Virus record (IMG/VR): IMGVR_UViG_2541047715_000004
From: a virus
Lineage: Duplodnaviria; Heunggongvirae; Uroviricota; Caudoviricetes
Length of the DNA stretch: 64,000 nt
Direction: 5' to 3' (one strand)
Each line of letters opens with the position of its first letter. Position 1 is the first letter of the stretch. Under the pieces are notes generated by a model. That model did no database searches. It was not told the origin of the DNA and saw only the letters and a list, made by a program, of their open reading frames with translations. This document shows positions 7,005-39,398 of the stretch, piece after piece. The translations under genes were made by a program, and so were the position numbers.

Positions 7005-7598
7005 ATGATTGCAGCCGAAAAAATCAAACAGCGAAAGCGCGACAACTCTCTTCGTGACCTCTGGAGAACACCTGACTGGCTGTTTTCTGCCATTCAACGT
7101 TATCTTGGAGTGACATTTGATGTTGACGTTGCCTGCAACAAGGACAATGCGAAGCTGCCTAATTTCATAGGCGTTGAGCGTGATGCTTTGAAATCTGAAT
7201 GGGGACAGCCAGGTACAATTGCCTTCCTCAATCCACCCTACTCCAAAATCTCCCCCTGGATTGATGCGGCTATACGTGAGCAGGCTCGCGGAGTTACAAC
7301 AGTGATGCTAATTCCTCAATCCCTCGATACAAAGTGGTATGAGCGTGCAACAGAGTGTGCGAATGAGACGATTATTCTGTCTGGTGGCCGCGTAGCGTTT
7401 GTCGAGCCTGACGTCAATTTGGGTCAGGTAGAAGTAAACATCAACCCCGGTGGCAGTATGCTCGTTGTTTTTCGAGGATTCTGTCAGGACGCTGGGCACT
7501 CTATAAGCAAGATCCCTTTGGACGTCATGAAAAGTCTGGGAGGGTATGATCCTGCGAATGTGATCAGGAAAAAAAGACAATCAAAGAAGGCTGCTTAG
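7005..7598 (+). CDS. dam: phage-type DNA N6-adenine methyltransferase
   Basis: FLNPPYS motif IV; ~200-aa size typical of small phage Dam enzymes. Confidence 0.7.
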   Translation: MIAAEKIKQRKRDNSLRDLWRTPDWLFSAIQRYLGVTFDVDVACNKDNAKLPNFIGVERDALKSEWGQPGTIAFLNPPYSKISPWIDAAIREQARGVTTVMLIPQSLDTKWYERATECANETIILSGGRVAFVEPDVNLGQVEVNINPGGSMLVVFRGFCQDAGHSISKIPLDVMKSLGGYDPANVIRKKRQSKKAA

Positions 7599-21284: not shown

Positions 21285-21441
21285 CCCGTCTCCTTTATTT
21301 TAATTTGCGCAATTGTCGCCTTGTAGTGTACTCCAGCTACGACATTTAATCATTTATGAGAAATGCTGTTATCACATGGCAGACATAAGGCCATTTTGTT
21401 ACTATCAAGCCCCTTTTCACTACAAAGAAGTAATGCCTACT

Positions 21442-23475
21442 ATGACCCAAGTCGCGAAGAAAATTCTGGTGACGTGCGCGCTGCCGTACGCTAACGGCTC
21501 AATCCACCTCGGCCATATGCTGGAGCACATCCAGGCTGATGTCTGGGTTCGTTACCAGCGAATGCGCGGCCACGAGGTTAATTTCATCTGTGCCGACGAT
21601 GCCCACGGTACGCCGATCATGCTGAAAGCACAGCAGCTTGGTATCACACCGGAGCAGATGATTGGCGAAATGAGTCAGGAACACCAGACTGATTTCGCAG
21701 GCTTTAACATCAGCTATGACAACTATCACTCGACGCACAGCGAAGAGAACCGCCAGCTGTCTGAGCTTATCTATACTCGCCTGAAAGAGAACGGTTTTAT
21801 TAAAAACCGCACTATCTCTCAGTTGTACGACCCGGAAAAAGGCATGTTCCTGCCGGATCGTTTTGTGAAAGGCACCTGCCCGAAATGTAAAGCGCCAGAT
21901 CAATACGGCGATAACTGTGAAGTCTGCGGCGCAACATATAGCCCGACTGAATTGATCGAGCCGAAATCGGTGGTTTCTGGCGCTACCCCGGTAATGCGTG
22001 ATTCCGAACACTTCTTCTTTGATCTGCCTTCTTTCAGCGAAATGTTGCAGGCATGGACCCGCAGCGGCGCGTTGCAGGAGCAGGTGGCGAACAAAATGCA
22101 GGAATGGTTTGAATCCGGCCTGCAACAGTGGGATATCTCCCGAGATGCGCCTTACTTCGGTTTTGAAATTCCGAACGCGCCGGGCAAATATTTCTACGTC
22201 TGGCTGGACGCGCCGATTGGCTACATGGGTTCCTTCAAGAATCTGTGCGACAAACGCGGCGACACTACCAGCTTCGACGAATACTGGAAGAAAGACTCCA
22301 CCGCCGAGCTGTACCACTTCATCGGTAAAGATATCGTTTACTTCCACAGCCTGTTCTGGCCTGCCATGCTGGAAGGCAGCAACTTCCGCAAGCCGACCAA
22401 CCTGTTTGTTCACGGCTATGTGACGGTGAACGGCGCGAAGATGTCCAAGTCTCGCGGCACCTTTATTAAAGCCAGCACCTGGCTGAATCATTTTGACGCC
22501 GACAGCCTGCGTTACTACTACACTGCGAAACTCTCTTCGCGCATTGATGATATCGATCTCAACCTGGAAGATTTTGTTCAGCGCGTGAATGCCGATATCG
22601 TGAACAAAGTGGTTAACCTGGCCTCCCGTAATGCAGGTTTTATCAACAAACGTTTTGACGGCGTGCTGGCAAGCGAACTGGCTGACCCGCAACTGTACAA
22701 AACCTTCACTGATGCCGCTGAAGTGATTGGTGAAGCGTGGGAAAGCCGCGAATTTGGCAAAGCTATCCGTGAAATCATGTCACTGGCTGACCTGGCTAAC
22801 CGCTATGTTGATGAACAGGCTCCGTGGGTGGTGGCGAAGCAGGAAGGCCGCGATGCCGACCTGCAGGCGATTTGCTCTATGGGCATTAACCTGTTCCGCG
22901 TGCTGATGACGTACCTGAAACCGGTACTGCCGAAACTGACTGAACGTGCAGAAGCATTCCTGAATACAGAACTGACCTGGGATGGTATCCAGCAACCGCT
23001 GCTGGGCCATAAAGTGAATCCGTTCAAGGCACTGTATAACCGTATCGATATGAAACAGGTGGAAGCACTGGTGGAAGCATCCAAAGAAGAAGTGAAAGCC
23101 ACAGCTGCACAGGTAACTGGCCCACTGGCTGACGACCCGATTCAGGAAACCATCACCTTTGACGACTTCGCCAAAGTTGACCTGCGTGTGGCGCTGATTG
23201 AAAACGCGGAGTTTGTCGAAGGTTCTGACAAACTGCTGCGTCTGACACTGGATCTCGGTGGTGAAAAGCGTAATGTCTTCTCAGGCATCCGTTCTGCTTA
23301 TCCAGACCCACAGGCACTGATTGGTCGTCACACCATTATGGTGGCTAACCTGGCTCCGCGTAAAATGCGCTTCGGTATCTCCGAAGGCATGGTGATGGCT
23401 GCTGGCCCCGGCGGGAAAGATATCTTCCTGTTAAGCCCGGATGCTGGTGCTAAACCAGGCCACCAGGTTAAGTAA
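21442..23475 (+). CDS. metG: methionine--tRNA ligase
   Basis: 677 aa from ATG 21442; HLGH and KMSKS motifs; near-identical to E. coli MetG as I recall it; divergent from apbC as in E. coli. Confidence 0.95.
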
Positions 23476-23636: not shown

Positions 23637-23936
23637 ATGTTGAACATTACCCAAGCCTACCAGGTGGCATTGATCAGTTCATCTCATACATCAGAGGAAG
23701 ATGCTCGCCGATTCATGATCGCAAGCAATGAGCTGGATTGGGTTTCACAAATTGATGGCGGTTGTATTGTCCACGCCGGGTTACAGGATGATGTCTGGAA
23801 AGATGACTTGCGTCGATATGGTATATCCGAAGGCGCGATTGCTAACATTCAGAAAGTACTTGATGTAGGCTTTGACTCTGTACATTTTGATTGTGGTGCA
23901 CCGGTCGTTGAAGGGCTAGAGTGCTGGCAATGGTAA
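23637..23936 (+). CDS. hypothetical protein
   Basis: 99-aa ORF after tandem family 1 palindromes. Confidence 0.45.
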   Translation: MLNITQAYQVALISSSHTSEEDARRFMIASNELDWVSQIDGGCIVHAGLQDDVWKDDLRRYGISEGAIANIQKVLDVGFDSVHFDCGAPVVEGLECWQW

Positions 23937-23972: not shown

Positions 23973-24158
23973 ATGCTTAAAGAAGACTCATATCTACTAA
24001 AGGCGCTTGAAATGCGTGGCGTTGAACCTACAGTGAAAAACGCTCACGATATCTACCTTCAGTTTTCACCGGAGCTGAAACGGCTCATAAATCAATACGG
24101 GGTTAATGACTCAAGTGTTAAAGCAATGATAGATGATGAATTAGACCATCTCATCTAA
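23973..24158 (+). CDS. hypothetical protein
   Basis: 61-aa ORF with GGAG RBS. Confidence 0.35.
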   Translation: MLKEDSYLLKALEMRGVEPTVKNAHDIYLQFSPELKRLINQYGVNDSSVKAMIDDELDHLI

Positions 24159-24310: not shown

Positions 24311-24880
24311 ATGGATGTGATGGAAACCCAGAACCAACAAACAAAACCTCTGAATAACATTTATGCGTGGATTCTAGCGTTCATGCCTTTCTTCTTTGGA
24401 GTATCGCCGGAAGAGTATACCAATTACGCTATTATAATTGGGGGTGTAACTACCATCGGTTTGTTAGTAGCTGACAGAATGGCTCTATCGGAGTCTGGCT
24501 GTGAACCACCTTCAATTCTATGGGGGGTATTCCTCCTGCCTGTCTATCTCTGGAAGCGCGCGACTATTACAAAAGGCAGCAGAGTGCCATTTATCATAAT
24601 CGTTGCGTCGCTGGCTTGGATTATCTTCATCGGCATCCCACACAAGGACGAGGTTGCTCTTGAAGAAGCAGCCTGCCCTCTCGTGACAACTATTCTGAAA
24701 GAGAATAACGGTTCGACTGCACCAAAATGTATGAAGGTGACAATAGAGGACAAGGTGACGGATAAGTTCTATAGAGCAACGGCTACACTAGACAATGGTA
24801 ATGACATTAACATTACTCTGGAACTTACCGGCGACAGGAACTTCTACGTCCGTGTTCCAAATGTTTATCTGAACAACTAA
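24311..24880 (+). CDS. hypothetical integral membrane protein
   Basis: Several hydrophobic helices. Confidence 0.45.
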   Translation: MDVMETQNQQTKPLNNIYAWILAFMPFFFGVSPEEYTNYAIIIGGVTTIGLLVADRMALSESGCEPPSILWGVFLLPVYLWKRATITKGSRVPFIIIVASLAWIIFIGIPHKDEVALEEAACPLVTTILKENNGSTAPKCMKVTIEDKVTDKFYRATATLDNGNDINITLELTGDRNFYVRVPNVYLNN

Positions 24881-25949
24881 CGGTTGTAACTTATTGATAA
24901 TGGCGGTCACAATTTGATTCTTTTCTATAAGAATCCGTTGATCGCCACTACTCCCCTACCATGCCCGCAATCACATCCTTAAATATCAATAAGTTATAGT
25001 TGTTTATACAATCAAGAAAACAACTGAATAACAGATCAACGAAACATCAACGCTTTCACCCGATTTGGTCTAAAAAATTGACGTTTTCACACATCACTGC
25101 TTATACCCGTAATTCTACACAGCAGACAGCGCCACAGCGTCCAATTTTCACCACAGACGACCCAACACACTACCAACAAAAACACATGCTCAAAATCGTT
25201 CCCGTTGCGTTACATAACCATATAAACAACTTATTTTCAGGCATAACAAAACAACTAAATAACACATATGCCATTCCCAAAACAACCAACCTCGTTATGG
25301 CAGGCTACCGAAAAGACCCACCTCTTCTTCCCAGGCTACCGGACAACCAACCTAACTTTCACAGGCAATCCGAAAACATTCATACGCGCGATACCCACGA
25401 CACGCCATTACCCAAACAGCGAAGAAACACCAGAATCACTGAAACCCCAACGAAGCCTGTAACCGCAAGGTTTCTCTCAATCCCAAAAGACACGAAGCAT
25501 AACAATCACGGGAAACGCCATTACCCAATACACGAATAACTACAAAAGCCTTTCACACACTCCAGACAAACAACTCAAACACAATAACGAAAGGAATCGC
25601 CCACCTGCCATTACTCCATACACGGAGAAGAACAATCACCAAAACGACGAGAACACCCCATAGAAGAACCACCGCAAAACTAACGAAACCACATACACCG
25701 ACAGAGAAAACAACACACCCAATTCACCAACAGAAATAGTCGCCGTATAGAACGTTCTGGAAGGAGTGAGCATTAACGCCTATAGAGAGGTTGAGACAGA
25801 TAAAACACGAAGAAAACACAACATGTATAGCGAAGAAGCCAGGTATGTATAAGTGGGGAGGGAAGGAGGGGTGTCGCCTCCTTTTTCGTATTTATTCAAC
25901 TCCTGATTTTATCCCCCGTAAAACCCCTACGGTCAGCCTTCGGTCCATA

Positions 25950-26085
25950 CAGGGAAAAGGTTGCATCCCGCTACAGAAACGGCTGGGTTGCCTTCGGGGA
26001 ACGGCTGGAGGTTTTCAGGGAAACGGTCGAGTTGCCTGTGTGGATTTCGGGAGAAGGCTCGATGCCGGTTCAGGAACGGTGGAGT
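25950..26085 (+). repeat. iteron-like direct repeats (consensus about GGGAAACGGCTGG), 5-6 copies at about 22-bp spacing
   Basis: cagggaaaaggttgc, cagaaacggctgg, cggggaacggctgg, cagggaaacggtcga, cgggagaaggctcga, caggaacggtgga. Confidence 0.6.
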
Positions 26086-26415
26086 ACCGGTATAGCGAGA
26101 GGGAGAGTTGCGGCTATCCACCTGTAATCTGCGGGAAGAAGAGTGGCGCTCACGTGCAGGCGGACTAACTTACCGTTGGACTCCCTCTGAATGCCCAGTT
26201 ACAGCGTAATTGTGCCAGACAGCCAACGGGTCACAATCGATTTCAGTAGGTTTTCGGGGAGATGATTATTCTGCCCACCAGCCACCTTCGGCCACTAAAT
26301 CAGAATAATGTAAAAAGTGTTCTCGGTACTGAACCTGAAAACTCACTGCCAAAACCACATTCACCGGAATAAAATCCTTTTTCGCCTGTGCGTTATTGCG
26401 ATAATAACACCATCA

Positions 26416-26434
26416 AGAAAACATGTTGTTTAAG
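26416..26434 (+). promoter_or_regulatory. family 1 palindrome (GAAAACATGTTGTTT)
   Basis: Upstream of ATG 26444. Confidence 0.45.
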
Positions 26435-26443
26435 GATTGCTTT

Positions 26444-26773
26444 ATGTTTGCAAATATCGACATCAACCAAATCAAGAAATTGACTCAAAAAGAGTTTGAC
26501 CAGTTCTATGAGCTGGAAGGTTGGTCTTCCACTCTGATCAATTCGCGGTGGGTGCTTGAGCTGATGACTCGTGATGACGCACCTGCTTTGATGATTTGCG
26601 ACATGGGTGAAGATGCTGACTTTATGGATATGAGCGAATTTTGTGTGGACACATACAACCGCAGCCAGAAGTACTACTTCACATGCGATAGCGAGAATGA
26701 CGTGATTTCTAAGGTCTATCTTCACCTTGTCCAGCATTGGGACGTTCAGGAGTTTCTTGAAGTATTCGAGTAA
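26444..26773 (+). CDS. hypothetical protein
   Basis: ATG 26444 with AAGGA RBS; earlier ATG in track lies inside the palindrome. Confidence 0.45.
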   Translation: MFANIDINQIKKLTQKEFDQFYELEGWSSTLINSRWVLELMTRDDAPALMICDMGEDADFMDMSEFCVDTYNRSQKYYFTCDSENDVISKVYLHLVQHWDVQEFLEVFE

Positions 26774-26783
26774 ACCTAACCAA

Positions 26784-26806
26784 AGCCAGCATTGCTGGCT
26801 TAATTT
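26784..26806 (+). terminator. putative terminator
   Basis: AGCCAGCATTGCTGGCT followed by TAATTT. Confidence 0.4.
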
Positions 26807-26899
26807 CTCTATAGCCGCAGGGAAGAACCTGCATATCGCTCATGCACCTGATCATTATGCTTTGTAGCCGTTTTCTTACTGGTATTATTTACGCCATTG

Positions 26900-26916
26900 A
26901 GAAAACAAGTTGTTTA
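26900..26916 (+). promoter_or_regulatory. family 1 palindrome (GAAAACAAGTTGTTT)
   Basis: Upstream of ATG 26927. Confidence 0.45.
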
Positions 26917-26926
26917 CGGAGTTGTG

Positions 26927-27238
26927 ATGAAAAAATCATTGGTTCTTGGTCTGGACAAAGACCAGAAGAGAAAAGAGAAGCCTGCGCTGGTTGCTCAATT
27001 AACTTTGCTGGACATCGTTGCCAATGGAACCTCTATTCGTCTGTTCCGTGAAACAGCGGTGTCTTTCGATAAAAACACCTTTACTCGTTATGTAATGAAT
27101 GTTCGTCGCCAGCGTGGAAAAGGCTGGATGGCATTTCAAAGAATGTGGCCGGAACATCAGCTCGAACTGGCTTTGATGGAAGTTAACCGCGTGGCCCAGC
27201 AAGAAATTCAGAGAGCATCAGTGATGGCAATAGCCTGA
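26927..27238 (+). CDS. hypothetical protein
   Basis: ATG 26927; track start at 26897 is TTG inside the palindrome. Confidence 0.45.
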   Translation: MKKSLVLGLDKDQKRKEKPALVAQLTLLDIVANGTSIRLFRETAVSFDKNTFTRYVMNVRRQRGKGWMAFQRMWPEHQLELALMEVNRVAQQEIQRASVMAIA

Positions 27239-27271
27239 TAATGTGCAAGTGGTAATTAGTCGACAGTACGA

Positions 27272-27300
27272 CAGCCCCGCCATCCTTACGGGGCTTTTTT
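27272..27300 (+). terminator. rho-independent terminator
   Basis: AGCCCCGCCATCCTTACGGGGCT followed by TTTTTT. Confidence 0.65.
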
Positions 27301-27364
27301 GTATTGTAAGTACATACTTACGATCATAGAATATAAAAATAACCAATACACTACGGAGAGTGAA

Positions 27365-27760
27365 ATGACCGTTAAACGCGAAAAACTGACTGTTGATGTT
27401 TACTATGCCTCTGAAACCGCCGAAGGTAAGAATGTGGCAAAAATCACCGTTGTTACGTACAACACCGAAACTGGTGCCGAAGTACAGGCCAGTACGATCG
27501 TGCGTAAAGGTGATGCCTCCGGCGGCGAGTACGCGACTCAATACCAGTCCATTCTCGATGCAACTGACCCGCTGCTGCTGAAAATCGAGAACTACTTCCG
27601 CCAGGTTGATGAAGAGGTGTTTGAAACCATGATGAATATGGTTAACACCGTATTCGCCTCCAACCTGAATACCAACACTACCTGGATTGGTCAGTACGGC
27701 CTGCGCATTACCTCTGGCATTCCTGCCGACACCTTAATCCCTGAAAGCGTATTCGCTTAA
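27365..27760 (+). CDS. hypothetical protein
   Basis: ATG 27365 with GGAGAG RBS. Confidence 0.45.
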   Translation: MTVKREKLTVDVYYASETAEGKNVAKITVVTYNTETGAEVQASTIVRKGDASGGEYATQYQSILDATDPLLLKIENYFRQVDEEVFETMMNMVNTVFASNLNTNTTWIGQYGLRITSGIPADTLIPESVFA

Positions 27761-27769
27761 TCCTCTTTA

Positions 27770-27796
27770 AATGGCGCGTAAACCGCGCCATTTTAT
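27770..27796 (+). terminator. rho-independent terminator
   Basis: AATGGCGCGTAAACCGCGCCATT followed by TTATT. Confidence 0.6.
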
Positions 27797-27803
27797 TAAG
27801 CCC

Positions 27804-27820
27804 GATAACAATTTGTTTTC
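27804..27820 (+). promoter_or_regulatory. family 1 palindrome (AACAATTTGTTTTC)
   Basis: Upstream of ATG 27878. Confidence 0.45.
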
Positions 27821-27877
27821 TGCCTTATCTGATTTGTGAAAATGATTTCACTGAAGCAACTTAATAAGGAAACCATC

Positions 27878-28252
27878 ATGGGACTTGATATCTATATCGA
27901 GACACAGCCTAAAAACGATCTGAATAACGAGGCATCCAGAAAGCAGGTTGCTTACTTCCGTAAGTTCAATGCGCTCGTTGGGTGGATGGAGCGCAACGTA
28001 GGTGAAGTCGAAAATTGTGAGCTTTTAGAATTAACGATGAATGACATTTGTTTTCTGAAGGCTCATTTGATGCACATAAACGAAAGCAATTGCGAAGAGT
28101 ACTTGCCTACCCGGGAAGGTTTTTTCTTCGGCAGTCAGGAGTACGATGAAGGTTACTGGCATGACGTGGATAAGCTGAAAAAACTTGTGGAAGACCTGAT
28201 CAGGAACCACGACTTTCACAATAACAGACTGACCTTCTGCGCCTGGTGGTAA
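27878..28252 (+). CDS. hypothetical protein
   Basis: ATG 27878 with AAGGAAACC RBS. Confidence 0.45.
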   Translation: MGLDIYIETQPKNDLNNEASRKQVAYFRKFNALVGWMERNVGEVENCELLELTMNDICFLKAHLMHINESNCEEYLPTREGFFFGSQEYDEGYWHDVDKLKKLVEDLIRNHDFHNNRLTFCAWW

Positions 28253-28567
28253 ATATGGGCGATTTCAAGAAACGCCTGAAGGAAAGAGCCGAGATGGTCA
28301 GAAAGCAAAACGCCTCTTCTGTCATCAGATACGCAAGGCAGTTTAGTCGCAACAACAAATCAGTTGAGGAAAAGATCCTTAGCGTAATCGTGCGATAATT
28401 ATTAAGGCCATCAGCATTGGTGGCCTTAAATGACCATCTTGTTTCCCGCAGGCTAAAAACACCAACCTCTTACCTCCAGGCAACCGACAAACCCACCTGT
28501 TCCCGTCCGGCTACCGCAACTTTCCACTTTGACGCCTTATTCGTACAACGATAATTAACGCCAACAA

Positions 28568-28581
28568 GAAAACAATTTGTT
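28568..28581 (+). promoter_or_regulatory. family 1 palindrome (GAAAACAATTTGTT)
   Basis: 22 bp upstream of ATG 28603. Confidence 0.45.
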
Positions 28582-28602
28582 ATTTACGATAAGGAATTAA
28601 TC

Positions 28603-29085
28603 ATGAATTTTATCGCTACTGTAAACGCACCCGCACATGGCAATATCGCTGTAACGTTCTCTGACATTGAAAAACGAGTACTTGGTGCATGGCGCGACAA
28701 TGAGACGGTAGAACTGTCAGCACAAGAAAAATGCATTATTGCACGCGACATCATTGGCAATCGTCGTTACTCGCGGGTATTTGAGAAAGCGTATGTGGTA
28801 AATTCTGGATTCGGAACGTTCGTCTTTCCGGTGCGCTCCGGGCGATTCTGCCAGTCCAAGCTGATTGAGTTCGCTACGCAGATTTCTGTCTGGATTAAAA
28901 CTCAATCGTCGTTCAAATTTTCCGACGATGAAGCAGTATCGCAGGGGATGCGGATCGCCAACAATGCGATTAAATGCAAAAACATTACGTATACCGCTGG
29001 CGTTGATACATGGAAACTGTTTTGCGCTAACTTTATGCTGAATGTATACGCAAGCAACCGCATCCACATCCTTGATGGCGTGTAA
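28603..29085 (+). CDS. hypothetical protein
   Basis: 160-aa ORF with AAGGAA RBS. Confidence 0.5.
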   Translation: MNFIATVNAPAHGNIAVTFSDIEKRVLGAWRDNETVELSAQEKCIIARDIIGNRRYSRVFEKAYVVNSGFGTFVFPVRSGRFCQSKLIEFATQISVWIKTQSSFKFSDDEAVSQGMRIANNAIKCKNITYTAGVDTWKLFCANFMLNVYASNRIHILDGV

Positions 29086-29093
29086 CTGAGAAG

Positions 29094-29117
29094 AGGGCCA
29101 GAAACGGCCCTTTCTCT
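29094..29117 (+). terminator. putative terminator
   Basis: GGGCCAGAAACGGCCC followed by TTTCTCT. Confidence 0.5.
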
Positions 29118-29133
29118 ATAGCCACCAGCTGCC

Positions 29134-29214
29134 GCAGGGAAATTTTCAGAAACGGCGAGGAACGTATTCATGAGCCGACGGGGAACGGCCAGGATTTTTT
29201 CGGGAAACGGCTGC
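29134..29214 (+). repeat. second iteron-like cluster (GGGAAACGG family)
   Basis: cagggaaatttt, cagaaacggcgagg, gaggaacgtattc, cggggaacggccagg, cgggaaacggctgc. Confidence 0.55.
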
Positions 29215-29701
29215 ATTCGCCTTTATGTAGAAAAAACATCGGGAAGCTGGTGGAATCCAACCAGCGGTTGTCGGACAGGTGAGCGGGGAAAATTATGATG
29301 ACTTTCGTCGCCTGAGACATCCAGATTTCTTTCGTAGCGTAATCACATATGTGATTAAGTGGTGTGATTATGTGAAAAATCACGCGCACATAATACGAGA
29401 GCGGATACGGAACAAAACAAAATGCCGATCCGCGCCGACAATTAAACGCGGATCACATAGCAAGAATAAAAGCCAATGATTAACCATACACCATAACGCA
29501 ATATAACGCGATTTAAGCGCGTTAATGCGCTAAGTAATGGGTATGTACTGGTAAGGATATAAAAGCGCGTCTATGGCGTTATTTTGGCGCTTATTTTTAT
29601 GTTGTTGGTGTGAGTCAAAGACAATAAAAAAAGCGCCATCATTGGCGCGTTATGGTGGAAGTATTGGAAACGAAAAAAGCGCCCATAGTGGGCGCTCGAT
29701 T

Positions 29702-29979: not shown

Positions 29980-30630
29980 TTACGCTTTGAAAGCATCAGC
30001 CAGATAGTTATAGAAATCATTTTTAATGAAGCGATATTGCTGCGTACCAGCTTTTGCGCTTCCCATTCCTTTGACTTTCTCAACAAGTCCAAGACGTTCG
30101 CAAAGATTGATCAACTGGTTGGCTTGAGTATAGCCAGCGTCCAATTTAATTTCGCACGCTTTTTTAGCTTCATTCATTAAATCGAAAACAGCGCCATTGG
30201 TGAACGTGTCGATCTCGTCGTTAATCATATCGATTAAAGCGAATACACGAGATCCTGACATATCAGCGATGGAATAAACGCATTTACCAGCTTTAATTGA
30301 TTTAACCAGATAGACCAGTTTTTCCAGTGAATAACTATTAGTCATTGCATCACGGAAAAATACTTCTGGCGCTTGTTTACTTGCTTTGATCGCATAGTAG
30401 AAAACAGAGCATAATTTTTCGTCTTCTACTGCGTTCACAACGTTGTTGATGAAGTAAGCAAGTTTAGTGGTCGCAGCTTGCATGTTTGCTTTGTCTGCTT
30501 TTGTGTGCGTACCATTTTTATAATGTTCGTTATATGTTTGAGTTGCCAGATCTGCTTTTTCGCGCAGCTCGTCGGATACAATGGCAGCAGCTTCAATGAT
30601 GGATTTTTTAGAAATGATAATGTTAGCCAT
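29980..30630 (-). CDS. hypothetical protein
   Basis: 216-aa ORF followed by the same GCGCCCACTATGGGCGC hairpin. Confidence 0.5.
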   Translation of the reverse strand: MANIIISKKSIIEAAAIVSDELREKADLATQTYNEHYKNGTHTKADKANMQAATTKLAYFINNVVNAVEDEKLCSVFYYAIKASKQAPEVFFRDAMTNSYSLEKLVYLVKSIKAGKCVYSIADMSGSRVFALIDMINDEIDTFTNGAVFDLMNEAKKACEIKLDAGYTQANQLINLCERLGLVEKVKGMGSAKAGTQQYRFIKNDFYNYLADAFKA

Positions 30631-30927: not shown

Positions 30928-31449
30928 TTAAAACGGAAGGATTCGTTCAACCCAATCGAAGAAAATAAGTATTTTTCTACCGTCTTCCAACTTAAGTGTG
31001 ACTAGACAGGCGTCAACGCCATCTGACGTTCCCTCAATTTCGCGACCGTCTGCCATGTAGACCCTTATAGATTTGCCGTTTTGGTAAGCCTGACGACATA
31101 TCTTAAAAAAGTCACGACGTGATGGCTGATTAACCATCTGTTCATTGTTTAGCGTTAGTCGACCTGTGAATGAAGTGTCAACCTCTTCTATGCCCGACTC
31201 AATTGTGCTAATGCGCTCAAGAGGGAGCCTTATACGATTTGTGTTGCTAAGCGGATCTGGTGTGAGGTTCAGCTTATTTCTTGCGCTCAATAGCCCGTAG
31301 ACATACATGCAAAACACTTGGCCGTCTTCGAGAGTGACTCTTACAGGAAATTTTGCACTCCGCCAGAAGAGCAAGGTGCGCTCAGCATGTTCGTAGTCTC
31401 GCGGCCAGACTTCAGCCGGTATGCCGTAGGTGATGTCCAATGTTCTCAT
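30928..31449 (-). CDS. hypothetical protein
   Basis: 173-aa ORF, overlaps upstream gene by 4 nt. Confidence 0.45.
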   Translation of the reverse strand: MRTLDITYGIPAEVWPRDYEHAERTLLFWRSAKFPVRVTLEDGQVFCMYVYGLLSARNKLNLTPDPLSNTNRIRLPLERISTIESGIEEVDTSFTGRLTLNNEQMVNQPSRRDFFKICRQAYQNGKSIRVYMADGREIEGTSDGVDACLVTLKLEDGRKILIFFDWVERILPF

Positions 31450-34060: not shown

Positions 34061-34142
34061 AAACCTCTTTCCTTAGTGCCTTTTGTATGTTATTTGGCTA
34101 TTATAATAAGTAAGTGATTACTTAGTGGATTGTAGCAATAAA

Positions 34143-34823
34143 ATGGATGTAAAAATCACGATTTTGCAGGTTGATGTTGCCAACCTTCGCCCGAATACCT
34201 GGAACACCAATTCGGTTGGTGCGCAGAATTTTGAAAAACTGAAAGGTTCTATCGAAAAATTGGGCTTTTTTAAGCCAATTTTGGCTCGTGAACTTGAAGA
34301 TGGATTTTTTGAAATCCTAGGCGGCGAACATCGCTGGCGTGCTGCTATTGAGCAAGGAATTTCAACGGTTCCGGTGCTTTCTGTGGGCAAAATTAGCGAT
34401 GTCGTAGCTAAACAGATGTCACTGGTGGACAACGAGCGATACGGTGAAGACGACCAAATCGCATTGCAACGCTTCATTGAAGAAATTCAGTCAGAACTTG
34501 ACTATCAACTGTCTGAAATCGCCCCGTATGACGACGAAATCTCGATGGTTTTAGCAAAAGAGGCGGCAATCGACCTTGAAGCACTGGAGGCGTTGTCTCG
34601 TGGTAGTGATGAGCCTGTCGATACCGACAAACGAGAGAAAACCGAACGTGTGGGGGCGGAACATCAGACCATGCGCTTCAAAGTAACTTTCGATGCGTCA
34701 GATCGTGTTGCAGAAACCATAAAAAACATCATCAAAGAGCAGGCTATTAACACCGGTAATGAAATGGAGAACGCTGGTGAGGCTCTGGTGTGGCTGGTCG
34801 ACTACTACAAGGAGCGTATGTAA
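34143..34823 (+). CDS. ParB/Srx-like N-terminal domain protein
   Basis: ILGGEHRWRAA box; start set to ATG 34143 (track start is GTG 34125). Confidence 0.6.
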   Translation: MDVKITILQVDVANLRPNTWNTNSVGAQNFEKLKGSIEKLGFFKPILARELEDGFFEILGGEHRWRAAIEQGISTVPVLSVGKISDVVAKQMSLVDNERYGEDDQIALQRFIEEIQSELDYQLSEIAPYDDEISMVLAKEAAIDLEALEALSRGSDEPVDTDKREKTERVGAEHQTMRFKVTFDASDRVAETIKNIIKEQAINTGNEMENAGEALVWLVDYYKERM

Positions 34824-35491
34824 TGACCAAAAAGTTTGAAATCGTATATCGCGACCCGGCAGATCTTATTCCCTATGAGATGAATGCCAAAAAGCATGAT
34901 GAACAGCAGATCCGAGATCTGGCCGCAGCCATTAAAAAGCGCGGATTTGACCAGCCAATTACGGTCGATAAGAACGACGTAATTATTACTGGCCACGGCC
35001 GCCGTGAGGCTGCAATTTTTGCTGGACTTGAGCGCGTGCCGGTTATTGTTCGCGATGATCTGAGTGATGACGAGGTACGTGCAAAGCGCCTTGAAGATAA
35101 CCGACTTGCCAGCATTGATTACGATGCAATTAAGCTACAGAAAGAGCTTGAGTCGCTTGTTCTGGACGATATCGAGGTTTTCGGCTTCGAAGAGCGTGAG
35201 TTGAATGTTCTCGTTGGCAGTATGACAGAAGAAATGGACACCGACTCGCTAGTTATCGATCTTGGCGAAGAAACTAAACGACAGAAGGATGAACACACCG
35301 AGATCAGTCGTGAAGTTGCAGCGGAAGAAGTACGTGTTGTCGACGTATTGGGCTTTAAAACGCTCCCTGCTGGCTCTGCCATTGTTGTTGGTGATTTGCT
35401 TGCCCATATGGAAGAAATGACGGGAGAAAGCGGGGTAGACGCATTTGTGGCATATGCGGAGAAGATCTCTTCCGGGGAGATGGCTGCATGA
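34823..35491 (+). CDS. ParB/Srx-like N-terminal domain protein (second copy)
   Basis: ITGHGRREAA box; TAATG overlap with upstream gene. Confidence 0.6.
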   Translation: MTKKFEIVYRDPADLIPYEMNAKKHDEQQIRDLAAAIKKRGFDQPITVDKNDVIITGHGRREAAIFAGLERVPVIVRDDLSDDEVRAKRLEDNRLASIDYDAIKLQKELESLVLDDIEVFGFEERELNVLVGSMTEEMDTDSLVIDLGEETKRQKDEHTEISREVAAEEVRVVDVLGFKTLPAGSAIVVGDLLAHMEEMTGESGVDAFVAYAEKISSGEMAA

Positions 35492-36153
35492 GCAAATACA
35501 TCATCAACGTATCGTTTCAGACACGCGTAAATAAAACCACGCGCACGTTGGAAATCGCTGAGTCGTTCGGGCTTGGCCTGGACGAAAAAGAGTGGACGCT
35601 TTACGACAATCTGGAGCTGGAAGTGAAGCAGGGCGATGTGGTGTACATCACCGGCCAATCCGGTTCCGGCAAATCCGTTGTGCTGCGCGAGTTGCAACGA
35701 CAGATGAAGGATGAAGGGCTGTCTGTAGCCTCCATCGATGATTTTACCTTCGATAATGAGGTTAACGTCATCGATCAGTTGGGCAAAACGACCAGTGATG
35801 CGCTTGGGTTGTTATCTATGGCTGGTCTGAACGATGCATATCTGTTTGTTCGCAAGCCTTCTGAAATGTCAGACGGCCAGAAATATCGTCTCAAGATTGC
35901 CAAACTGATTGAGTCAGGCGCTAAAGTATGGGCTGCTGACGAGTTCGGCGCTGTTCTCGACCGTGTAACCGCTCAGGTTGTGGCGTCTAACCTCCAGCGT
36001 GCCGCTCGAAAGGTTGGTGCGACGGTAATGGTGGCGACGACTCACGAAGACCTGAAGAACGCGCTGCGCCCTGATATGCAGATCACCAAGCACTACAAAG
36101 AACGCGTGAAGGTGGAATATCACAATGGTAGTCATGATGAGGTCCATTCATGA
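35488..36153 (+). CDS. ABC-type ATPase without transmembrane domain
   Basis: Walker A GQSGSGKS, signature-like SDGQKYRL, Walker B VWAADEFGAVLD; ATGA overlap. Confidence 0.6.
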   Translation: MSKYIINVSFQTRVNKTTRTLEIAESFGLGLDEKEWTLYDNLELEVKQGDVVYITGQSGSGKSVVLRELQRQMKDEGLSVASIDDFTFDNEVNVIDQLGKTTSDALGLLSMAGLNDAYLFVRKPSEMSDGQKYRLKIAKLIESGAKVWAADEFGAVLDRVTAQVVASNLQRAARKVGATVMVATTHEDLKNALRPDMQITKHYKERVKVEYHNGSHDEVHS

Positions 36154-37509: not shown

Positions 37510-38142
37510 ATGACGGTCGAAAAAGACGAGGTAAAAACTCGCCTGACACCAGCGGAGTGGGCCGAAGCTGAAGCCAAATGGACGTCAGGCGAATATACAC
37601 TCTCAAAGCTGGAGGAAGAGTACGGCATTCGTCGTGAAACACTCTCCAGACATTTCAAAAAGCGAGGATTAGAGAAAGGCGCGGACTCTGTTGGGAAGAT
37701 GGTTCGTGAGTCTCTTAAATCTGACGCAGAGCTTCGCGCTAAAGCCCGTGCGGAAAAGATAGAAGAACGTCGTACACGTTATGACGGCTGGGCGTATGCG
37801 TTGGGGCAGATGGTGATGGTCGAAGTCACTACGGCCAAACGTGAGGGTAAGCCTTTAGGGGCGATTGAGGATTCTCTCAAGAGCTTACAGAGAGCCAGTA
37901 ATACCCTTGCAAAATGCTTTGAAGTTTCGTCCAAAGCATTGGGCATGGATCATGCGGAAAATGACGAGGAAGAAATTCCGAACCTGGTATTTGGTGAGCT
38001 TACGCCTTCCCAGGTGGCGAAATTACGTCAGGAAGACGACGAGCCTGAAATCATCGATGACGAATTGCTTGAGACGTTGGAAGAAGAAGCTCTAAGCGAA
38101 TTTGATGCGACAGATGATGGAATTGAAGGGGAGGACGAATAA
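37510..38142 (+). CDS. putative terminase small subunit
   Basis: Directly upstream of and overlapping TerL (TAATG); helical N-terminus, acidic C-terminus. Confidence 0.5.
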   Translation: MTVEKDEVKTRLTPAEWAEAEAKWTSGEYTLSKLEEEYGIRRETLSRHFKKRGLEKGADSVGKMVRESLKSDAELRAKARAEKIEERRTRYDGWAYALGQMVMVEVTTAKREGKPLGAIEDSLKSLQRASNTLAKCFEVSSKALGMDHAENDEEEIPNLVFGELTPSQVAKLRQEDDEPEIIDDELLETLEEEALSEFDATDDGIEGEDE

Positions 38143-39398
38143 TGGCAATCCCGTCCTCGCTCAGTCTTGTGCAACTGCATTCTGGACAGATGAAAGTCTT
38201 CCAGTCTCCGCATCGATTTAAAGTTGTTTGTGCTGGTCGACGCTGGGGAAAATCCCGGTTGTCGATCTCCACTATTATTCGTGCGGCGGCAAAGGAAAAA
38301 AAGCAAAGAGTCTGGTATGTCGCTCCTACTTACCAGATGGCTCGCCAGATTTTGTGGGACGATCTACAGGAAGTTCTGCCTCGTAAGTGGGTTAGGAAAA
38401 AGAACGACACCACGATGACAATCGTGTTGAAGAACGGTTCGGAGATCGCCCTCAAAGGTGCTGATAAGCCTGACACTCTGCGCGGCGTAGCGTTGCATTT
38501 TGTAGTGCTTGATGAATTTCAGGATATGAAGGCTGACACCTGGTACAAGGTGTTACGACCTACTCTTTCATCGACACGCGGCGGTGCACTGATCATTGGT
38601 ACGCCAAAAGGCTTCTCGGAATTTCACAAACTGTGGACTATAGGCCAGAACGTAGAGCTGCAAAGAAAGGGACAGTGGAAGAGCTGGCAGTTTGTAACTG
38701 CCGATTCTCCGTTTGTACCTACGGCGGAAATTGAAGCTGCTAAGAACGATATGGACCCGAAATCGTTCGCTCAGGAGTACCTGGCGAGCTTTGAGAACAT
38801 GTCCGGGCGCGTTTACTACCCGTTCGATCGTAACGTGCATGTAAAACCGCTTCAGTTCAACCCTCGGTTGCCTATATGGGTAGGGCAGGACTTCAACATT
38901 GACCCGATGTCTTCAGTAATTTTGCAACCTCAGCCAAATGGTGAGCTATGGGCAATTGATGAATTGGTGCTCTTTTCCTCTAACACGGCAGAGGTTTGTG
39001 ATGAGCTTGAGAGACGCTTCTGGCGCTGGAAATCACAGATAACGGTATTTCCAGATCCGGCAGGTGCTTATCGCCAACATGCTCGCGGGGAGTCTGACGT
39101 CGACATATTCAAAGAGAAGGGATTCTTACGTGTCGATTATTCGAAAAAGCACCCGCCAATTGCGGATCGTGTTAATGCTGTTAACCGAATGCTGATGTCC
39201 GCATCTGGAGATATCCGGCTGTATATCGATCCGAAGTGCAAGCATTTGATTGATTCACTGGAAAAAGTCATCTACAAGCCTGGAACACGAGATATGGATA
39301 AGACAGGTGGCATTGAGCATAGTGCAGACGCATTGGGCTATCCAGTACATCGTAGGTATCCAGTCAAAAACCGTGTTATTCTTGGTGGTTCTCGATAG
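38142..39398 (+). CDS. terminase large subunit
   Basis: ATPase motif VCAGRRWGKS, Walker B VVLDEF, followed by nuclease-like region; precedes portal. Confidence 0.8.
   Translation: MAIPSSLSLVQLHSGQMKVFQSPHRFKVVCAGRRWGKSRLSISTIIRAAAKEKKQRVWYVAPTYQMARQILWDDLQEVLPRKWVRKKNDTTMTIVLKNGSEIALKGADKPDTLRGVALHFVVLDEFQDMKADTWYKVLRPTLSSTRGGALIIGTPKGFSEFHKLWTIGQNVELQRKGQWKSWQFVTADSPFVPTAEIEAAKNDMDPKSFAQEYLASFENMSGRVYYPFDRNVHVKPLQFNPRLPIWVGQDFNIDPMSSVILQPQPNGELWAIDELVLFSSNTAEVCDELERRFWRWKSQITVFPDPAGAYRQHARGESDVDIFKEKGFLRVDYSKKHPPIADRVNAVNRMLMSASGDIRLYIDPKCKHLIDSLEKVIYKPGTRDMDKTGGIEHSADALGYPVHRRYPVKNRVILGGSR

Follow-up and report, generated by a model that had tools for sequence, protein, structure and literature searches.

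Two phased repeat arrays of SSU5-like phage-plasmids and an orphan candidate for their binding partner

SSU5-like phage-plasmids occur commonly in clinical Escherichia, Klebsiella, Enterobacter and Salmonella, belong to a family that includes Yersinia pestis pFra/pMT1, and in some members carry resistance genes. For their switch from low-copy plasmid maintenance to phage replication, only the RepA origin has been annotated. Within a 64,000-nucleotide (nt) stretch of the IMG/VR virus record IMGVR_UViG_2541047715_000004 (hereafter the window), two clusters of short direct repeats, designated arrays A and B, bracket a block of small open reading frames (ORFs), and a preliminary description drawn from the DNA alone had regarded them as a candidate replication or incompatibility locus of the plasmid type. 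The locus therefore raises the question of whether these arrays constitute a replicon, and which protein they might serve. The array pair was found to be real, strongly conserved and so far unannotated; its form is of a known kind, but its candidate partner is an orphan protein.

Phased repeats on either side of a gene block

The 3.9-kb region of this locus matched 242 Escherichia coli plasmids and no chromosome; it also matched phages of Escherichia (Cyrano, CMS-2020a and PhiR41_1; 93-98%), of Klebsiella (~76%) and of Salmonella (SSU5; 69%). An annotated twin plasmid, NZ_CP062914, showed 97-99.9% identity to the window, block by block, and encodes terminase, portal, capsid and tape measure proteins, DnaE, a DnaB-like helicase, NrdAB and a RepB-family initiator. 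These plasmid and phage matches, together with the gene content of the twin, identify the window as part of an SSU5/pHCM2-type phage-plasmid. The replication genes of the element encode DnaE, a DnaB-like helicase, theta, ligase, RNase H and exonucleases, its annotated origin being of the plasmid RepA type alone. The PGAP annotation of the twin plasmid contains nothing across 24880-26444 (window positions, as hereafter), and labels all ORFs of the block as hypothetical.

Both clusters were located where the preliminary description had placed them (Table 1), and have in common the core GGGAAACGG, present in four to six copies per module. Array A comprises six units on the same strand, spaced by 22, 22, 22, 31 and 22 nt, with degenerate units at 25953 (GGAAAAGG) and 26050 (GGGAGAAGG). 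Array B comprises four units (29100, 29148, 29181 and 29203) separated by 48, 33 and 22 nt, in addition to a partial unit at 29136 (CAGGGAAAT) and a degenerate one at 29239 (TCGGGAAGCTGG); the half-site that had been noticed in a terminator (29098-29110) corresponds to the unit at 29100, which lies in the terminator loop. The spacing of about 22 bp proposed for both clusters holds for A, whilst in B it applies to the last pair alone, the other spacings being near multiples of 11. The arrays are iteron-like in form, as had been recognised, in that an asymmetric core of 9-14 conserved bp is repeated head to tail at two-turn phasing (22 bp or other near-multiples of 11 bp) in two clusters of the same orientation that flank a gene block.

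Matches to the pattern RGRAACGGY numbered 10 in the window, compared with 3.3 +/- 1.9 in dinucleotide shuffles, and the eight on the plus strand all fell within 25950-26085 (A) or 29098-29214 (B), so that eight of the ten occupied two stretches of ~110 nt on one strand. First-order Markov simulation, run 300 times, gave no more than two matches per 110 nt, whereas four were observed, in two places. No RGRAACGGY cluster like the arrays was present in the out-of-window remainder of NZ_CP062914. A scan for 9-mers repeated at least four times in 180 bp of a 120-kb plasmid (a reconstructed composite, also used for the GC skew analysis) recovered the iteron clusters of repA as well as array B; the remaining matches were scattered and mostly in coding sequence. 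Tandem Repeats Finder detected neither array because the spacers differ. When aligned to each other, A and B gave a local alignment score of 50, versus 25 +/- 3 in shuffles, and on sequence they are paralogous non-coding modules. Their core homology covers ~80 nt, and further common boxes extend each module to ~300 bp, namely a G-rich box and hairpin on the left, TATAG..GGGAGA on the right, and AGCGTAAT ~120 nt after the array.

Salmonella phage SSU5 and Klebsiella pJN2-26 carry both arrays at matching relative positions and on the matching strand, with the repeat cores standing as conserved islands between diverged spacers, and nearly all of 77 IMG/VR loci found via ORF6 of the block have both arrays on the plus strand. 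Amongst 104 distinct modules, 222 of the 367 unit-to-unit intervals were exactly 22 nt, the remainder being mostly 31, 33, 34, 42, 44 or 48 nt, again near-multiples of the helical turn. An alignment of module B from 18 sequences gave 97% conservation in core columns versus 79% in the other columns; selection, as judged from such alignments, acts on the repeat cores. Module A matched 713 plasmid records from Klebsiella, Escherichia, Enterobacter, Salmonella, Citrobacter and Cronobacter, always as one copy each and never with an annotated feature beneath it.

Three distant lineages, whose neighbouring proteins are 30-33% identical, also possess the arrays (loci L206, L208 and L210). Their module B reads GGAAACGG in L206, where it is densely packed, GGGAAAAGG in L210, and two copies of GGGAAAGTTTTCCC in L208, and in all three a non-coding gap of 0.6-0.8 kb follows the homologue of a 216-amino-acid (aa) protein gene (see below) and ends in module B. 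In L206 and L210 an A+C-rich stretch is followed by module A. The preliminary description had made its proposal depend on conservation in related elements, and this was found in SSU5, Klebsiella, the IMG/VR loci and the distant lineages alike. In all, ~100 distinct relatives, the three distant lineages among them, retain both arrays with unchanged position, strand and 22-nt phasing. A natural deletion derivative without virion genes, Escherichia albertii p3RM15112 (L205, 62 kb), retains repA, a ParA-like gene and both arrays, and has the 216-aa gene in two tandem copies. A genome-wide scan for the pattern GGGRAACGG-N13-GGGAAACGG returned almost entirely chance occurrences among the matches listed, with two Kluyvera contigs that looked related, and the searchable literature yielded no account of these repeats.

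RNA fold z-scores relative to shuffles were +1.0, -0.8 and 0.0 (A on both strands, B on the plus strand). In a consensus fold of 18 diverse B modules the terminator hairpin alone was well supported, with one compensatory pair, and no Rfam match was obtained at gathering or lenient thresholds. Repeat units start within a few nt of intrinsic terminators, and promoter prediction gave none in between. Phasing by the helical turn is relevant to duplex DNA and meaningless for single-stranded RNA. Because there is no excess RNA structure and no Rfam match, and because the repeats are phased and follow terminators without a promoter, it was concluded that the arrays act as DNA sites and not as RNA.

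It is accordingly very unlikely that the repeats work as an RNA decoy, titrating by read-through an RNA-binding protein such as a FljA homologue or CsrA-like factor. A FljA-family protein (Pfam Flag1_repress, PF03614, E 1.4e-68) is indeed encoded at 30928-31449 on the minus strand, and this phage-plasmid homologue may, from its family, shut off host flagellin; the exact 12-mer TGAGCCGACGGG is common to the E. coli-type array B (29170-29181) and the leader upstream of K-12 fliC (L084); and the repeats are rich in GGA/GGGA. Against a decoy stand the points just given and the near absence of covariation, with neither a promoter nor supported, conserved GGA hairpin loops of the kind seen in protein-sponge RNAs (CsrB/RsmZ type). 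Furthermore, CAGAAACGG units contain no GGA, and the 12-mer is specific to the E. coli lineage; since it is absent in other lineages, the match to fliC is probably due to chance.

The resident plasmid replicon, the enclosed genes and an orphan neighbour

A RepB-family repA lies ~45 kb from the arrays, outside the window, and is accompanied by iterons of its own, GTATGCTGYCAGCGG, which flank it upstream and downstream and recur in a third cluster ~2-3 kb away, a layout resembling the incC-rep-incA arrangement of P1 and F. Four iterons downstream of repA have been described in Klebsiella relatives (PMC6735626). Replicon typing gave IncFIB and rep_cluster_488 in pFra and the E. albertii relatives, pFra being IncFIB. 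The GTATGCTGYCAGCGG iterons are unrelated in sequence to GGGAAACGG, and arrays A and B are not the plasmid-maintenance replicon; the P1-type replicon that had been suspected at the arrays is instead the distant repA locus.

The enclosed block, described previously as containing five ORFs, was found to contain six. None matches Rep, DnaA or helix-turn-helix initiator families (Pfam, NCBIfam, PHROGs, PDB sequences), which agrees with the earlier remark that no Rep protein was recognisable. Searches of Pfam, NCBIfam and PDB sequences gave no match of any kind for the six ORFs, and the PHROG families to which they belong have no known function. Block content turns over among relatives, only ORF2 and ORF6 being widespread: the smallest block seen was A-ORF2-ORF6-B, L205 has a RelE/ParE toxin-antitoxin pair inserted among the cargo genes, and the block of one distant relative holds ten unrelated small genes (one RadC-like) along with an ORF3 homologue. 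The palindrome GAAAACAnnTTGTTT precedes ORF1, ORF2, ORF4 and ORF6, and a 55-nt promoter-like element is common to ORF1, ORF2 and ORF6. Given this variable content, the lack of a Rep-like member, and the individual promoters and common palindrome, the block is, on sequence grounds, accessory cargo and not an initiator operon.

ORF2 is a second candidate binder of the arrays. It is the one enclosed protein for which a model was made, and the model comprises a four-stranded beta-sheet with a long helix, which is not a winged-helix Rep, and the fold weakly resembles AP2 and integrase arm-binding domains. The gene was not detectable in L206 or pMT1; an apparent homologue in L206 (hhalign E 0.2) was not accepted. 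The idea that the arrays are plasmid-replicon iterons or an incompatibility locus, one of the enclosed ORFs encoding a novel initiator, fits iteron-like repeats that flank genes, but it is hardly tenable when repA with unrelated iterons is found elsewhere, when the enclosed genes vary and none is Rep-like, and when both the 62-kb deletion derivative and Y. pestis pFra retain repA.

An orphan 216-aa protein is encoded on the minus strand beyond array B, and its gene is the only neighbour that accompanies this array in every lineage, with homologues beside module B in pMT1, L206, L208 and L210. The pFra homologue is 86% identical, whilst those of L206, L208 and L210 are 30-33% identical and preserve the same synteny. 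As a hidden Markov model search of 1.84 billion representatives retrieved only 23 relatives, and no Pfam or NCBIfam match was found, the protein can be linked to no known family. PDB sequence searches with ORF2, ORF6 and the 216-aa protein also returned nothing. The best-conserved segment across lineages is the winged-helix helix (D164, G166, T168, Q169, Q172), and this parallels the conserved DNA core. The pairing of gene and array across lineages is co-occurrence and not proof of binding. A DEAD-box helicase gene is present on the same strand, ~1.9 kb upstream of the 216-aa gene.

Candidate functions of the arrays

Since spacings are 22 bp or near-multiples of 11 bp, the sites all lie on one helix face, the geometry to be expected if one sequence-specific protein binds cooperatively and builds a nucleoprotein complex, and the partner is probably encoded by the phage-plasmid itself. 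We tentatively propose that the arrays are DNA sites on which the 216-aa protein assembles, and that they serve a second, phage-mode replicon as its origin or control region. The helical part of this protein could pair the two arrays by handcuffing or looping; array B and the conserved spacer beside the candidate initiator gene would constitute the origin proper, and array A would be an auxiliary array, as is crr for phage P4 or incA for P1. Any replication role of the arrays would involve a partner encoded outside the block. This phage-mode origin is favoured because of the iteron-like form, the two clusters as in P4 and SPP1, and the binder gene beside B; because the spacer contains GATC, a relaxed DnaA box (TTTTTCACA at 29371, the only one near B), palindromes and AAACG repeats; and because a helicase gene is near, the element has its own replisome genes, and only a plasmid-type origin is known.

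More broadly, SSU5/pHCM2/pMT1-type phage-plasmids might possess a previously unrecognised second replicon or cis-acting maintenance system, composed of an orphan winged-helix/helical-hairpin protein, two GGGAAACGG arrays and a 0.5-0.9-kb A+C-rich non-coding element, with no homology to known Rep/iteron families and with a role in phage-mode replication or copy-number switching; we regard this as a speculative possibility. The conserved and unannotated complex of ~5 kb (A+C-rich stretch, array A, cargo, array B, spacer and 216-aa protein) is a candidate for the cis-acting machinery of the switch to phage replication and, if regulatory, would define the boundaries and control of a rapidly exchanging accessory-gene island.

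Comparison with known systems yields both likenesses and differences. As in the iterons of P1 (incC-repA-incA), F and RepFIB, the repeats are asymmetric and head to tail, with a ~22-bp period and more than one cluster in one orientation. Unlike those replicons, the core is unrelated to the iterons of the element's own RepA, no Rep_3-type initiator is adjacent and no Rep gene enclosed, no DnaA boxes, AT-rich 13-mers or IHF elements abut the arrays, the conserved core, at 9-14 bp, is shorter, and the spacers vary. Phages P4 (ori/crr) and SPP1 (oriL/oriR) also have two repeat clusters kilobases apart, in a phage genome with its own replication proteins, the known initiators there being alpha and G38P. 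The candidate binder here differs in being an orphan winged-helix protein with no detectable relation to alpha or G38P. Unlike P2 Cox/lambda Xis-type arrays and integrase arm-type sites, A and B have no nearby recombinase or core site; with regard to arm-type sites, the ORF2 match is weak and ORF2 is missing in some array-bearing lineages.

A number of observations weigh against a phage-mode origin served by the 216-aa protein. The fold match of this protein is to a generic winged helix, not to the two-winged-helix Rep type. Its promoter contains no conserved copy of the motif, a GGAACGA copy in the window not being conserved, and the autoregulation usual for iteron initiators is thus not seen. 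The co-occurrence of its gene with array B could be simple synteny, and Y. pestis pFra/pMT1 has kept B having lost A and ORF2. A scan for DnaA boxes, IHF sites, GATC and AT-richness around the arrays revealed no origin signature: no perfect DnaA box or IHF site was found near either array, no AT-rich unwinding element beside array A, and the spacer beside B is only mildly AT-rich, its richest stretches starting roughly 130 to 400 bp from the array. Cumulative GC skew over the reconstructed plasmid rises monotonically and marks no origin. Finally, array B sits where transcription converges, which is an unusual place for an origin.

An alternative is an architectural or regulatory function, in which the 216-aa protein or ORF2 coats and bridges both arrays, and the cargo is looped, silenced, insulated or switched without any role in replication. 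This is a possible but uncertain explanation, and such a looping or insulating role is almost as likely as a phage-mode origin. The arrays have the same orientation, bracket small, independently promoted genes with a common operator palindrome, and stand just past terminators, shielded from incoming transcription, with no classical origin accessories present; the long helical hairpin predicted for the candidate protein would suit bridging. Some block genes are moreover expressed in lysogens, CYRAN_109 (= ORF5) reaching 6x background (PMC9928086). However, the arrays do not overlap promoters, variable genes are not confined to the A-B interval, pFra keeps B alone, and the distant lineages keep the B-spacer-gene arrangement despite entirely different cargo, so that B seems tied to the 216-aa gene and not to the cargo.

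Phased short direct repeats are also a property of centromeres of the parC and tubC type, and the arrays might be centromere-like or plasmid-pairing sites, through which a centromere-binding protein would segregate or tether the low-copy prophage. We consider this unlikely. The neighbours of the arrays are small cargo genes, the FljA homologue and the helicase, with no adjacent partition operon and no NTPase partner (TubZ, ParM or ParA) next to the arrays or the candidate gene; unlike in tubC/TubR and parC/ParR, the repeats do not precede the candidate gene and their period is 22 bp as opposed to 11-12 bp. A ParA-like gene with a small downstream partner does exist, but ~40 kb from the arrays, and its upstream region contains the palindrome and not GGGAAACGG. 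If pMT1 uses a P1-type parABS, as we assume, the arrays persist across different partition systems. It is similarly improbable that the modules, with Chi, form a recombination or packaging landmark that marks a DNA end or hotspot (pac-proximal, for cyclisation of injected DNA, or for cargo exchange). An inward-facing pair of Chi sites brackets B (29122 minus, 29246 plus), the right-hand one is kept in most relatives though its surroundings differ, cargo turnover is rapid, and a module fragment lies past ORF1 as if cassettes had been exchanged at module edges. Chi is nevertheless frequent throughout the window (14 sites per 64 kb, including one at 26275-26282, 190 bp right of array A), the terminase genes (37510-39398) lie 8-11 kb from the arrays, public phage records open at unrelated positions, and a landmark would leave the selection on phased repeat cores unexplained.

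Flanking elements and further observations

Table 1. Positions of the arrays, their flanking elements and associated features (window coordinates unless a locus is named)
Feature	Position	Strand	Remarks
A+C-rich (70-78%) non-coding stretch	24950..25780	+	always upstream of array A
Array A, left flank	25846..25949	+	G-rich box (TATAAGTGGGGAGGGAAGGAGGGG), hairpin and T-run, leader CGTATTTATTCAA..ATCCCCCGTAA..CGGTCAGCC
Array A	25950..26085	+	six phased units ttYcGGGAAACGGCyGG; starts 25953, 25975, 25997, 26019, 26050, 26072
Array A, right flank	26086..26215	+	GGTATAGCGAGAGGGAGAG box; AGCGTAAT 119 nt past array
Variable cargo block, six small ORFs	26444..29085	+	most with own promoter; ORF1 to ORF6 at 26444-26773, 26927-27238, 27365-27760, 27878-28252, 28255-28398, 28603-29085
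Solitary module fragment (TTTCTCTATAGCC-GCAGGGAAGAACCTGCAT) past ORF1 terminator	26803..26840	+	homologous to B left edge and A first unit
ORF2	26927..27238	+	103 aa; most widely kept enclosed gene; second candidate binder
ORF6 intrinsic terminator, opening module B	29087..29112	+	read from sequence; not listed by simple terminator scan
Array B	29098..29257	+	units 29100 (in terminator loop), 29136 (partial), 29148, 29181, 29203, 29239 (degenerate)
Chi site, array B left edge	29122..29129	-	CCACCAGC on + strand
Chi site, array B right edge	29246..29253	+	GCTGGTGG
Spacer between B and minus-strand genes	29258..29700		non-coding, conserved, mildly AT-rich
Orphan 216-aa protein, candidate array binder	29980..30630	-	long helical hairpin and C-terminal winged helix (model)
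Palindrome AACAnnTTGTT	10091, 10820, 23561, 23612, 26420, 26904, 27807, 28571, 37458; L005 ~33815		
repA iteron clusters	L005 1092-1228; L006 24186-24291; composite plasmid ~98.7 kb		

The A+C-rich stretch upstream of array A is ~0.5-0.9 kb in length, and nowhere else in the window does the plus strand reach so extreme an A+C content. All frames are interrupted by stops, no ORF is conserved, and an operator-like motif, GAAAACAA, opens the stretch at about 25015. Counterparts were located in L002 (2300-3100), L003 (2300-3100), L206 (12060-12470) and L210 (12400-13000). The stretch could act as RNA, unstructured and C/A-rich (rut-like, or as a protein sponge), or alternatively as a DNA element.

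The left-flank elements of array A are also present in L078 and L210, and the right flank has its counterpart at array B in a TTTATGTAG..GGGA box, with AGCGTAAT 123 nt past the array. The stem of the ORF6 terminator varies in sequence by lineage whilst the hairpin is kept (consensus fold; one-sided changes only). A CAGGGAA element had been described as preceding both clusters. The element (TCTCTATAG) is real, with direct copies at 26806 and 29113 and a reverse complement at 25780, but the direct copy at 26806 follows ORF1 and does not precede A; it is specific to the E. coli lineage, being absent in SSU5 and Klebsiella and mutated in Cyrano.

The spacer beyond array B contains TGTGATTATGTGAA, AACGCG/AAACG repeats, two GATC sites, palindromes and terminators on both strands, among them a strong one on the minus strand (29455-29426) that is distinct from those of the upstream gene. 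A small RNA gene or an origin-like region might lie within this spacer. In L206, module B has at its right edge (7010-7025, minus strand) the sequence CTCACTATAGGG, which we take to be a 12-nt match to the T7 promoter core, and boxes of the CTATAGAGA type occur at three places in the E. coli lineage (25780, 26806 and 29113); no phage-type RNA polymerase gene was seen alongside these T7-promoter-like boxes. Inspection by eye for a T7-like promoter at the TATAG..GGGAGA box, and for sigma-28, sigma-E or ECF promoters in the repeats, gave readings that were dropped, the spacing being wrong and a phage RNA polymerase gene missing.

The palindrome (A)AGAAAACAAnTTGTTT occurred at least nine times, with ~0.24 occurrences expected by chance. 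Its sites are always in promoter regions, namely those of four cargo ORFs, of the genes that follow metG and, on the twin plasmid, of the ParA-like partition gene, and by position it looks like the operator of a global repressor (a prophage repressor, or a KorB- or omega-like partition regulator).

Elsewhere in the window, a full-length, host-like metG (methionyl-tRNA synthetase) is encoded at 21313-23475, and the twin record also has apbC, the DNA polymerase III theta subunit, an S24 peptidase and a type I restriction-modification system. The small ORF after metG (23637-23936) matched DUF5983 (E 7.5e-11), and the next one (23973-24158) gave a weak, sub-threshold match to the T7 gp5.9 RecBCD inhibitor (E 0.005); by sequence, the region after metG hints at an anti-defence or early-gene island. 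The terminase genes are directly preceded (34125-36153) by genes for a small ABC-type ATPase and a paralogous pair of ParB_N-domain proteins, and this trio is kept in pFra and all three of the distant lineages.

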